From sequence record NC_049942.1: a DNA stretch of 57,198 nt; one strand, written 5' to 3'. Below the pieces are notes generated by a model. It was not told the origin of the DNA and ran no database searches. It worked only from the letters and a program-made list of their open reading frames with translations. This DNA comes from Escherichia phage JLK-2012. The translations under genes were made by a program, and so were the position numbers. Positions 29,336 through 29,668 of this stretch are shown one piece after another; position 1 is the first letter of the stretch; every line of letters starts with the position of its first letter.

Positions 29336-29668
29336 ATGAAAATGAAAAGAAATCTTCCGTTAATTATTTTGTTGTCTTCTCTGGTTATGGGCTGTACGCA
29401 ACATAAAACAGATATACCCCGACAGTTGGTTAAGGCATTACCACAATATCCGGCCTATGCAGCGGCAAATTATATAAAGGGACGGGTTGATGTGAAGTTT
29501 GATATTGGTGCTGATGGTACTGTCACCCGAATTGAGTTTATCCGTTCAGAGCCGCACCATTTGTTTGATGAGCAGGTTGTAAAGGCGATGGCAAAATGGC
29601 GATTTGAGAAGGACAGGCCGTGTAAAGGCGTGAAGAAAACGTTTATCTTTAGTCCTTCTGCACCCTGA
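29336..29668 (+). CDS. Lipoprotein with TonB-C-like domain
   Basis: MKMKRNLPLIILLSSLVMGC lipobox signal; C-terminal region (YPAYAAANYIKGRVDVKFDIGADGTVTRIEFIRS) resembles the TonB C-terminal fold; AT-rich. Confidence 0.5.
   Translation: MKMKRNLPLIILLSSLVMGCTQHKTDIPRQLVKALPQYPAYAAANYIKGRVDVKFDIGADGTVTRIEFIRSEPHHLFDEQVVKAMAKWRFEKDRPCKGVKKTFIFSPSAP

Follow-up and report, generated by a model that had tools for sequence, protein, structure and literature searches.

Why would a prophage carry a lipoprotein built from a TonB domain of the kind found in its host? The question is raised by a small gene of Escherichia phage JLK-2012 (sequence record NC_049942.1), whose 57,198 nucleotides are referred to here as the window. 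A sequence-only reading of this DNA had singled out an open reading frame (ORF) at positions 29336-29668 and proposed that it encodes a lipoprotein with a TonB-C-like domain, sitting as a moron in a non-structural gap between lysis and packaging genes. That the gene exists was already known from annotation; it is read here as a phage outer-membrane lipoprotein moron built from a host-type TonB domain, which probably targets the TonB-dependent import route.

The ORF is real and open at 29336-29668 on the plus strand, but its start needs correction: the conserved initiation codon is the second ATG, at 29342. The same codon is kept in the diverged allele of phage 21 (allele B; the window carries allele A), the upstream in-frame ATG at 29336 is specific to the allele of the window, and both RefSeq and the curated phage 21 record begin the gene at the ATG equivalent to 29342. 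A Shine-Dalgarno-like GGGA (29332..29335, plus strand), read from the sequence and the comparison of alleles and replaced by AGGA in allele B, lies 6-7 nt 5' of this codon. The coding sequence of the TonB_C lipoprotein, stop included, spans 29342..29668 (plus strand), as delimited by the ORF list, profile matches and RefSeq; RefSeq places WP_000828066.1 ('TonB family protein') at the matching position of E. coli O55:H7 DEC5E, whose DNA agrees with the query 29336-29668 at 100% identity.

The product is 108 amino acids long, consisting of MKRNLPLIILLSSLVMG up to the predicted cleavage site before Cys18 and of CTQHKTDIPRQLVKALPQYPAYAAANYIKGRVDVKFDIGADGTVTRIEFIRSEPHHLFDEQVVKAMAKWRFEKDRPCKGVKKTFIFSPSAP from there on, which would leave a mature lipoprotein of 91 residues. 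The signal peptide with its lipobox, MKRNLPLIILLSSLVMG-C18, occupies 29342..29395 on the plus strand (Cys codon 29393-29395), and the lipobox, LVMG/C18-TQ, satisfies the PROSITE pattern PS00013 applied as a regular expression (VMGC). This lipobox, already pointed out in the sequence-only reading, is kept in 23 of 24 family members, down to 36% identity, and Cys18 is invariant in all 22 aligned homologs. The residue at +2, Thr in the window, is always Ser, Thr, Ala or Val and never Asp in the family, so that the Asp inner-membrane retention signal is missing. Lipoproteins without Asp at +2 are sorted to the outer membrane, a regularity known as the Lol-avoidance rule; because the lipobox is conserved and no Asp stands at +2, outer-membrane sorting is predicted for the phage protein as well. 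By its sequence the protein is a bacterial lipoprotein, and its lipidation and delivery to the outer membrane would be expected from the same features. Between the putative lipid anchor and the folded domain there is a linker of seven residues, TQHKTDI (29396..29416, plus strand), delimited by an AlphaFold2 (AF2) model in which the predicted local distance difference test score (pLDDT) is below 50 at residues 16-21 and above 90 from about residue 25.

The domain behind the linker is that of TonB. Residues 26-104 (29417..29653, plus strand) correspond to residues 153-231 of E. coli TonB according to sequence profiles, a phmmer search of the PDB and the AF2 model. Both profiles score well above their cut-offs, Pfam PF03544 (TonB_C) with E=1.3e-14 and 54.8 bits against 24.6, and TIGR01352 with 54.5 bits against 27.1, and the phmmer search retrieves the C-terminal domains (CTDs) of E. 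coli and Salmonella TonB at E values of about 1e-15 to 1e-16 over TonB residues ~152-231. The matched span, 152-231, is the same fragment whose complexes with BtuB and FhuA were solved by crystallography. For the phage protein, the AF2 model is a prediction of the fold that draws on 22 homologs; it has a mean pLDDT of 85.5 and exceeds 90 over residues 25-105. Its top Foldseek match is 2gsk_B, TonB in the BtuB complex, with a template modelling (TM) score of 0.91 and a root-mean-square deviation (rmsd) of 1.1 Å; taken together, the PDB matches 2gsk_B, 1u07 (the free CTD) and 2grx_C (FhuA:TonB) give TM scores of 0.88-0.92 at an rmsd of 1.1 Å. The TonB-C-like assignment, for which structure prediction had been suggested as a check and a failed profile search as the sign of error, is thus upheld on both sides: the two profiles pass, and the model superposes on the TonB CTD.

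The likeness to the TonB CTD (PF03544; E. coli TonB 153-233; PDB 2GSK, 2GRX and 1U07) is one of family and of predicted fold, with a short N-terminal strand followed by an alpha-beta-beta-alpha-beta arrangement that forms a three-stranded sheet and two helices, and with the YP motif and the core aromatics in common. Across the phage protein and its relatives, Cys18, P34/Y36/P37, F53, G59, F75, W86, F88 and strand beta3 are invariant. An offset of 127 maps the domain residues among them onto TonB P161/Y163/P164, F180, G186, F202, W213 and Y215 (Phe in the phage protein); the positions of F180, G186, F202, W213 and Y215 stay invariant down to 36% identity, and the xPxYP segment is invariant or nearly so. 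According to the cross-linking and crystal literature, the xPxYP region (TonB 160-164) and beta3 are the parts that contact the Ton box.

What the protein lacks is as telling as what it keeps. Upstream of the domain there is no transmembrane helix or Pro-rich spacer of TonB, and only the signal peptide, the lipobox and seven residues are found; the lipoprotein signal and the short tether thus stand in place of the transmembrane helix, the Pro-rich spacer and the long periplasmic linker of TonB, and the gene is encoded by a prophage. In keeping with this architecture, the NCBIfam TonB equivalogs (PRK10819 type) reach 49-74 bits where 265-448 would be required, and the match is confined to the C-terminal region of the profiles, from position ~150. 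At the other end, the phage protein stops four residues after beta3, and the TonB tail, 232-239, is missing. Because the transmembrane anchor and the Pro-rich spacer are absent, coupling to ExbBD is impossible, and the protein is a member of the TonB_C domain family that cannot be an energy transducer.

The genomic setting identifies the gene as a prophage accessory gene. Its position between lysis and packaging genes is as the sequence-only reading had described it: R (26990-27487) and Rz/Rz1 (27472-27951) come before, and the HNH endonuclease, TerS and TerL genes, starting at 30042, 30688 and 31248, come after. The full order is SAR-type lysozyme, Rz/Rz1, a KilA-N/ORF11CD3 protein, a phrog_875 protein and then the TonB_C gene, followed by a minus-strand DUF3950 (YlcI/YnfO-like) gene, HNH endonuclease, TerS and TerL. 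The non-structural gap around the gene is also present, but rather than the ~900 bp given earlier it measures 1137 bp (28905 to 30041), and it additionally holds the DUF3950/YlcI-YnfO gene on the minus strand at 29800-30000. Similarly, 'AT-rich' is correct as a description of the ORF but moderate in degree, with a GC content of 43.1% compared with 50.7% in the left and 55.6% in the right flank; GC at third codon positions is 0.41, compared with 0.66 in TerL.

Pairwise alignment with phage Stx2a_WGPS8 delimits a mobile cassette comprising promoter, ORF and 3' region (29193..29845, no strand assigned, limits approximate, ~650 bp, GC 42.7%). Stx2a_WGPS8 has the same neighbours and is near-identical up to ~29192 and again from ~29845, with ~230 bp of unrelated DNA in between; the right limit of the cassette falls within the 3' end of the DUF3950 gene. 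Of the 267 phage records with a match to the region, only 13 carry the ORF. The same slot is used in at least four phage backbones, and in phages that have different lysis and terminase modules. The low GC content of the cassette, its presence or absence relative to Stx2a_WGPS8, a conserved extended -10 element and the recurrence of the same slot in differing phages all bear out the designation as a moron, and the TonB_C gene shows the usual marks of such genes except a terminator.

The gene is common, and it is maintained. Among 5426 complete E. coli genomes, 1616 (~30%) carry it, in up to four copies per genome. Allele A, defined by at least 95% nucleotide identity to the window, occurs in 414 genomes and allele B in ~1200, the two being ~74% identical in nucleotide and 72% in protein sequence; carrier strains in the genome searches include O157, O55:H7, O103, ST95 and O25:H4 isolates. 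In phage 21 and in strain ATCC 11775, allele B adjoins bor/iss, and the packaging context is of the lambda type. A Klebsiella phage has a copy of 40% identity in the same slot, and another copy is found in a Sodalis prophage. In 80 IMG/VR contigs the order is always Rz, TonB_C gene, terminase, with two kinds of terminase module. All 80 of these viral copies are intact, their segregating sites comprise 19 synonymous and 7 non-synonymous ones, and the ratio of non-synonymous to synonymous substitution rates (dN/dS) between alleles A and B is 0.12, from which sequence comparison purifying selection is clear. Frameshifted C-termini do occur in metagenome and draft protein clusters (P0010, P0012, P0013, P0015, P0018 and P0019). 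The P0012 frameshift is found exactly in none of the complete genomes, and the intact 3' 61-mer is found exactly in 1101; the frameshifted forms are probably assembly or sequencing artefacts. Decay into a pseudogene was rejected on the ground that the frameshifted form is exact in none of the complete genomes.

The nearest non-phage relatives indicate where the gene may have come from. A profile search and genome scan uncovered a family of proteins of 104-123 amino acids with the same architecture, that is, a lipobox, a short linker and a single TonB_C domain, in Klebsiella, Raoultella, Pantoea, Erwinia, Pseudescherichia and Salmonella, annotated as 'TonB family protein'; those of Klebsiella, Raoultella, Pantoea, Erwinia and Pseudescherichia are 36-47% identical to the phage protein. 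The genes examined sit among chromosomal housekeeping neighbours (a LacI regulator, DUF1440, a major facilitator superfamily transporter, hydrolases, araA and an ATP-binding cassette permease) and, unlike the phage gene, have no link to lysis or packaging genes. Identity of the phage protein to enterobacterial TonB CTDs is only ~37-42%, and the phage gene is therefore not a recent tonB fragment; the family of small chromosomal TonB_C lipoproteins, rather than host tonB, may be its source, as far as sequence relationships go. Klebsiella phage ST13-OXA48phi12.4 (L005) carries a DUF1440 membrane-protein gene and a TonB_C lipoprotein gene, at 1277-1903 and 4968-5336, and in Klebsiella and Raoultella chromosomes (L006-L008) the DUF1440 gene, ~60% identical, and the TonB_C gene are immediate neighbours. 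The resemblance suggests that both genes of the Klebsiella phage were captured from that chromosomal locus. One chromosomal copy is exceptional in its surroundings: in Erwinia sp. P6884 (L024, 4992-6251) the gene lies directly 5' of Phage_holin_8 and Phage_holin_3_7 genes, with an Hcp gene nearby, and the locus, perhaps what is left of a prophage or tailocin, may stand midway between the chromosomal setting and that of the phages.

Expression in the lysogen could be driven from within the cassette. A promoter-like site at 29282..29309 (plus strand), recognised by consensus and conservation, consists of ATGACC, a 16-nt spacer and TAGAAT preceded by TG, the extended -10 being TGTTAGAAT at 29301-29309. 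Allele B has diverged in the DNA around it but retains the -10 block, ATTGTyAGAATAAGAC, and this putative promoter might allow transcription of the TonB_C gene in lysogens. A perfect 8+1+8 palindrome, AGAATAAGACTTATTCT, at 29305-29321 overlaps the -10 and is missing from allele B. It is unique in the window, although with three mismatches allowed, as in the scan, at least one match was also obtained in 17 of 100 shuffles. The palindrome could serve as an operator, and allele A is always accompanied by the DUF3950 gene. Inside the ORF, on the opposite strand, there is a near-consensus site of the sigma-70 type (29469-29496, minus strand: TTCACA, 16 nt, TATAAT; 11/12 matches), whose -10 but not its -35 is kept in allele B and which is missing from the Sodalis copy; antisense transcription may start from it, or it may have arisen by chance in AT-rich DNA.

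What could a TonB domain achieve without energy? A conserved docking domain, no energisation and a predicted outer-membrane lipid anchor together suggest a decoy, and because coupling to ExbBD is impossible, binding without pulling is the simplest activity that remains. Anchored in the inner face of the outer membrane, the 7-residue tether, at most ~3 nm long, would keep a complete but unenergised TonB CTD close to where the TonB-dependent transporters open into the periplasm. There the domain would pair with the TonB boxes of transporters, and possibly also with those of incoming group-B colicins, in competition with the energised TonB of the host. The expected outcome would be a lower TonB-dependent uptake of phages (T1, phi80), group-B colicins and TonB-dependent microcins, and the price some loss of iron and B12 uptake. 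Binding of TonB boxes by the lipoprotein and the phenotype that would result from it are conjectured from sequence, model and analogy. On balance, an outer-membrane-tethered TonB decoy that occupies TonB boxes and blunts the TonB-dependent entry of phages and bacteriocins is put forward tentatively, with a confidence somewhat short of even. A bolder version is possible but doubtful: a natural dominant-negative TonB that occupies the Ton boxes of many transporters and incoming colicins at once, conferring on the lysogen a broad tolerance to TonB-dependent phages, group-B colicins, microcins and sideromycins, and acting at the level of the pathway, unlike the receptor-specific Llp and Cor.

There are precedents for the individual parts of this scheme. 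Overexpressed periplasmic TonB fragments have a dominant-negative effect on iron import via TonB-dependent transporters in E. coli, which they inhibit according to the account in PMC9841981 of the work of Howard et al. (2001, PMID 11566987), the title of which names FecA and FhuA. These engineered fragments (Howard, Herrmann, Stratilo and Braun), insofar as that account describes them, are periplasmic or C-terminal domains of TonB without an energised anchor and therefore a functional analogue of what is proposed here; they are artificial, soluble and overexpressed, whereas the phage protein is natural, predicted to be lipid-anchored and diverged (~40% identity). TonB-box peptides, for their part, lower colicin killing and phi80 infection (Tuckman and Osburne 1992, as summarised in PMC9841981). 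The phage lipoprotein Llp, located at the inner leaflet of the outer membrane, binds FhuA and excludes phages, and prophage Cor proteins functionally inactivate FhuA (bioRxiv 10.64898/2026.03.26.714494). Like the TonB_C lipoprotein, Llp (T5) and Cor (phi80, HK022, N15, T1) are small phage envelope proteins, and what they disable is a TonB-dependent transporter; they are specific for FhuA and unrelated in fold and sequence, and a TonB domain, by contrast, might in principle engage the Ton box of any transporter. The Bor/Iss proteins of lambdoid prophages are lipoproteins too, and their genes are morons that share the slot between Rz/Rz1 and the packaging genes, but on the opposite strand, with unrelated sequences and a known serum-resistance phenotype. 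The sequence-only reading had cautiously named superinfection exclusion or serum resistance as functions that such lipoproteins often have; overall, the evidence favours a role in the TonB pathway over a Bor-like one.

It is important to point out that several observations sit uneasily with a TonB decoy. The position of TonB Q160 is Leu in the phage protein and Leu, Tyr, Gln, Pro, Arg or Lys across the family, and the position of R166, in TonB a contact of the FhuA cork, is an invariant Tyr; judged from this substitution, the binding surface may have been retuned to another partner. The chromosomal relatives examined showed no prophage setting and no adjoining transporter or iron genes, so that the ancestral role need not have been anti-phage. 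A constitutive TonB antagonist should cost iron uptake, which is awkward to reconcile with a prevalence of 30% unless expression is low. Nor do the regulatory signals lend help: the best match to a Fur box upstream of the gene agrees with the consensus at 12 of 19 positions, lies within the range of shuffled sequences and was rejected, and a scan for intrinsic terminators near the gene found none, the hairpins predicted downstream being without T-runs. Finally, the gene is oriented with the late operon, and its product might not appear until a late stage of infection, at which exclusion would no longer serve a purpose.

The loss of Q160 and R166 also counts in favour of a different task: bound to peptidoglycan or to an envelope protein other than a transporter, the domain would link the outer membrane to the wall, much as Pal or Lpp do, and would alter envelope robustness, serum resistance or the timing of lysis rather than TonB traffic. 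The genes bor and iss, which encode serum-resistance lipoproteins, occupy the slot as well, iss being the immediate neighbour of allele B, and homologs among housekeeping genes would fit a general role in the envelope; the TonB CTD reportedly associates with peptidoglycan and with non-receptor outer-membrane proteins. We nevertheless consider such a tether or stabiliser unlikely. No OmpA-like, LysM or other peptidoglycan-binding domain scores in the Pfam scan, the residues that are conserved are those common to genuine TonBs, including the Ton-box-proximal YP segment, and a 7-residue tether keeps the domain near the membrane and probably short of the peptidoglycan. Ranking behind it, and also unlikely, is a receptor-specific allosteric mechanism in which the lipoprotein docks on the periplasmic face of one transporter, changes its external loops and blocks adsorption whether or not the incoming phage needs TonB. 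Llp acts in this way on FhuA, the family-invariant Tyr at the position of R166 could mark a new specific contact, and the ORFs scanned behind the tail genes included none that resembles cor; with J split, the receptor of the phage cannot be read from the sequence. Yet the fold is unrelated to that of Llp and Cor, the sequence matches only TonB families in PHROG, Pfam and NCBIfam, and the gene is carried by phages that differ in their tail modules, which speaks against dependence on a single receptor. A fold search of BFVD gave no match at E<=1e-3, the presence of Llp and Cor models in that database not being independently confirmed. Docking of TonB on FhuA or BtuB is not known to close the external loops, which also counts against this mechanism.

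The same biochemical logic as that of the decoy could serve host physiology instead, with the family limiting TonB-dependent transport, be it to avoid iron overload or to free TonB, and with the prophage copy bringing in this trait for no anti-phage purpose. Syntenic chromosomal copies in Raoultella and Klebsiella, next to the DUF1440 gene, and further ones in Pantoea and Erwinia speak for such a damper of iron and B12 uptake. It is rendered improbable, and ranks lower still, by the lack of a Fur box or other iron-linked signal upstream, by neighbours of the chromosomal copies that are unrelated to iron uptake, and by the repeated capture of the gene into the moron slot of several backbones, which suggests a benefit connected with phage or lysogen competition. 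Two readings follow from existing labels, and both are very improbable. An accessory role in lysis is implied by the PHROG 1267 match (E=1.9e-42), labelled 'Rz-like spanin', and a gene for an outer-membrane-type lipoprotein just downstream of the lysis cassette on the late strand would suit it; but the window has a complete Rz/Rz1 pair at 27472-27951, with Rz1 embedded at 27704-27910, the protein has no similarity to Rz (BLASTP E=9.4) and consists of a globular 80-residue TonB domain rather than a short Pro-rich o-spanin, homologs occur in non-phage chromosomal settings, and, in the Stx2a_WGPS8 alignment, the gene is missing from close relatives that are presumably lysis-proficient. The separate Rz/Rz1 pair and the absence of similarity to Rz effectively exclude it. 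An inert remnant, a piece of tonB that reached the phage in partial or truncated form and has no function, is what the labels 'Partial tonB-like membrane protein' and 'TonB fragment' imply, and the prophage in the window does look defective. The gene has its own start codon, signal peptide and lipobox, however, and the low dN/dS between alleles, the 80 intact viral copies, the 61-mer counts in complete genomes and the modest identity to enterobacterial TonB CTDs are all at odds with a recent or decaying fragment; the selection data effectively exclude this reading as well. A search with the PADLOC defence-system profiles returned nothing meaningful.

The surroundings of the cassette have features of their own. 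Just to the left of its junction, 29095-29192 is a conserved non-coding block in which a GC-rich hairpin of two tiers can form (CACCGG...ACCGCG-loop-CGCGG...CCGGTG; RNAfold -26 to -29 kcal/mol). Copies of it are present in the window, phage 21, ATCC 11775 and Stx2a_WGPS8, the last of which has no TonB_C gene; in the phage 21 and ATCC 11775 copies a 17-nt indel breaks the ORF annotated there, and the block ends at GGTGGAAGAA, exactly at the break in homology. The block may mark a junction formed by recombination, or it may act as regulatory RNA; no Rfam family was found in 28600-30200. On the other side, the DUF3950/YlcI-YnfO-like gene (29800-30000, minus strand) encodes 66 amino acids and converges on the TonB_C gene. 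Wherever a viral contig with allele A extends far enough downstream (74 of 80), the DUF3950 gene is there, and it is also present in Stx2 phages without the TonB_C gene; a segment of the protein, …RNIRFPNHIIEQINIALEHKGSGNFSAWVIEV…, resembles a ribbon-helix-helix DNA-binding motif by eye only.

Further afield, the tail fibre gene J is split into two ORFs (46543-49344 and 49369-50016), and in the DEC5E RefSeq annotation the portal gene of the same prophage is frameshifted and the HNH gene (~30042-30572) incomplete. These lesions make it probable that the window holds a defective prophage, in which the TonB_C gene has nevertheless stayed intact. Further accessory genes precede the lysis cassette, at 23732-24235 and 24772-26625; they encode a TerB-like tellurite-resistance family protein, a DUF3927 protein and a 617-aa DUF6645/phrog_143 protein, which come after three tRNA genes (Asn, Thr and Gly in the DEC5E annotation). 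This layout is typical of the late regions of Stx phages; no stx is annotated in the corresponding DEC5E stretch, and no search was aimed at stx.

Existing labels have obscured the family. Databases call the phage gene product a 'TonB family protein' or, through PHROG 1267 in the lysis category, an 'Rz-like spanin', and the 13 carrier phages list it as 'protein TonB', 'TonB C-terminal domain protein' (phage 21), 'Partial tonB-like membrane protein...CP-933N' or 'TonB fragment'. The PHROG 1267 label is very likely an annotation error that was spread by gene position, the family being one of TonB_C lipoproteins. A search of the full-text literature retrieved nothing on this phage protein, on prophage TonB-like lipoproteins or on stand-alone TonB_C lipoproteins.

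Even if the decoy should prove wrong, the TonB_C gene is a widespread, selected and misannotated gene, and a cheap and well-defined target for first functional work. If the decoy is right, the lipoprotein would be a natural compact inhibitor of the interaction between TonB and the Ton box, an interaction that is already pursued as an antibiotic target (PMC9841981). It would represent host mimicry directed against a whole import pathway rather than a single receptor, and it would change predictions of how well E. coli lysogens withstand TonB-dependent phages, colicins, microcins and siderophore-antibiotic conjugates. Should the broad form of tolerance hold, the trait would be carried by ~30% of sequenced E. 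coli, including strains of the enterohaemorrhagic (EHEC) and extraintestinal pathogenic (ExPEC) types.

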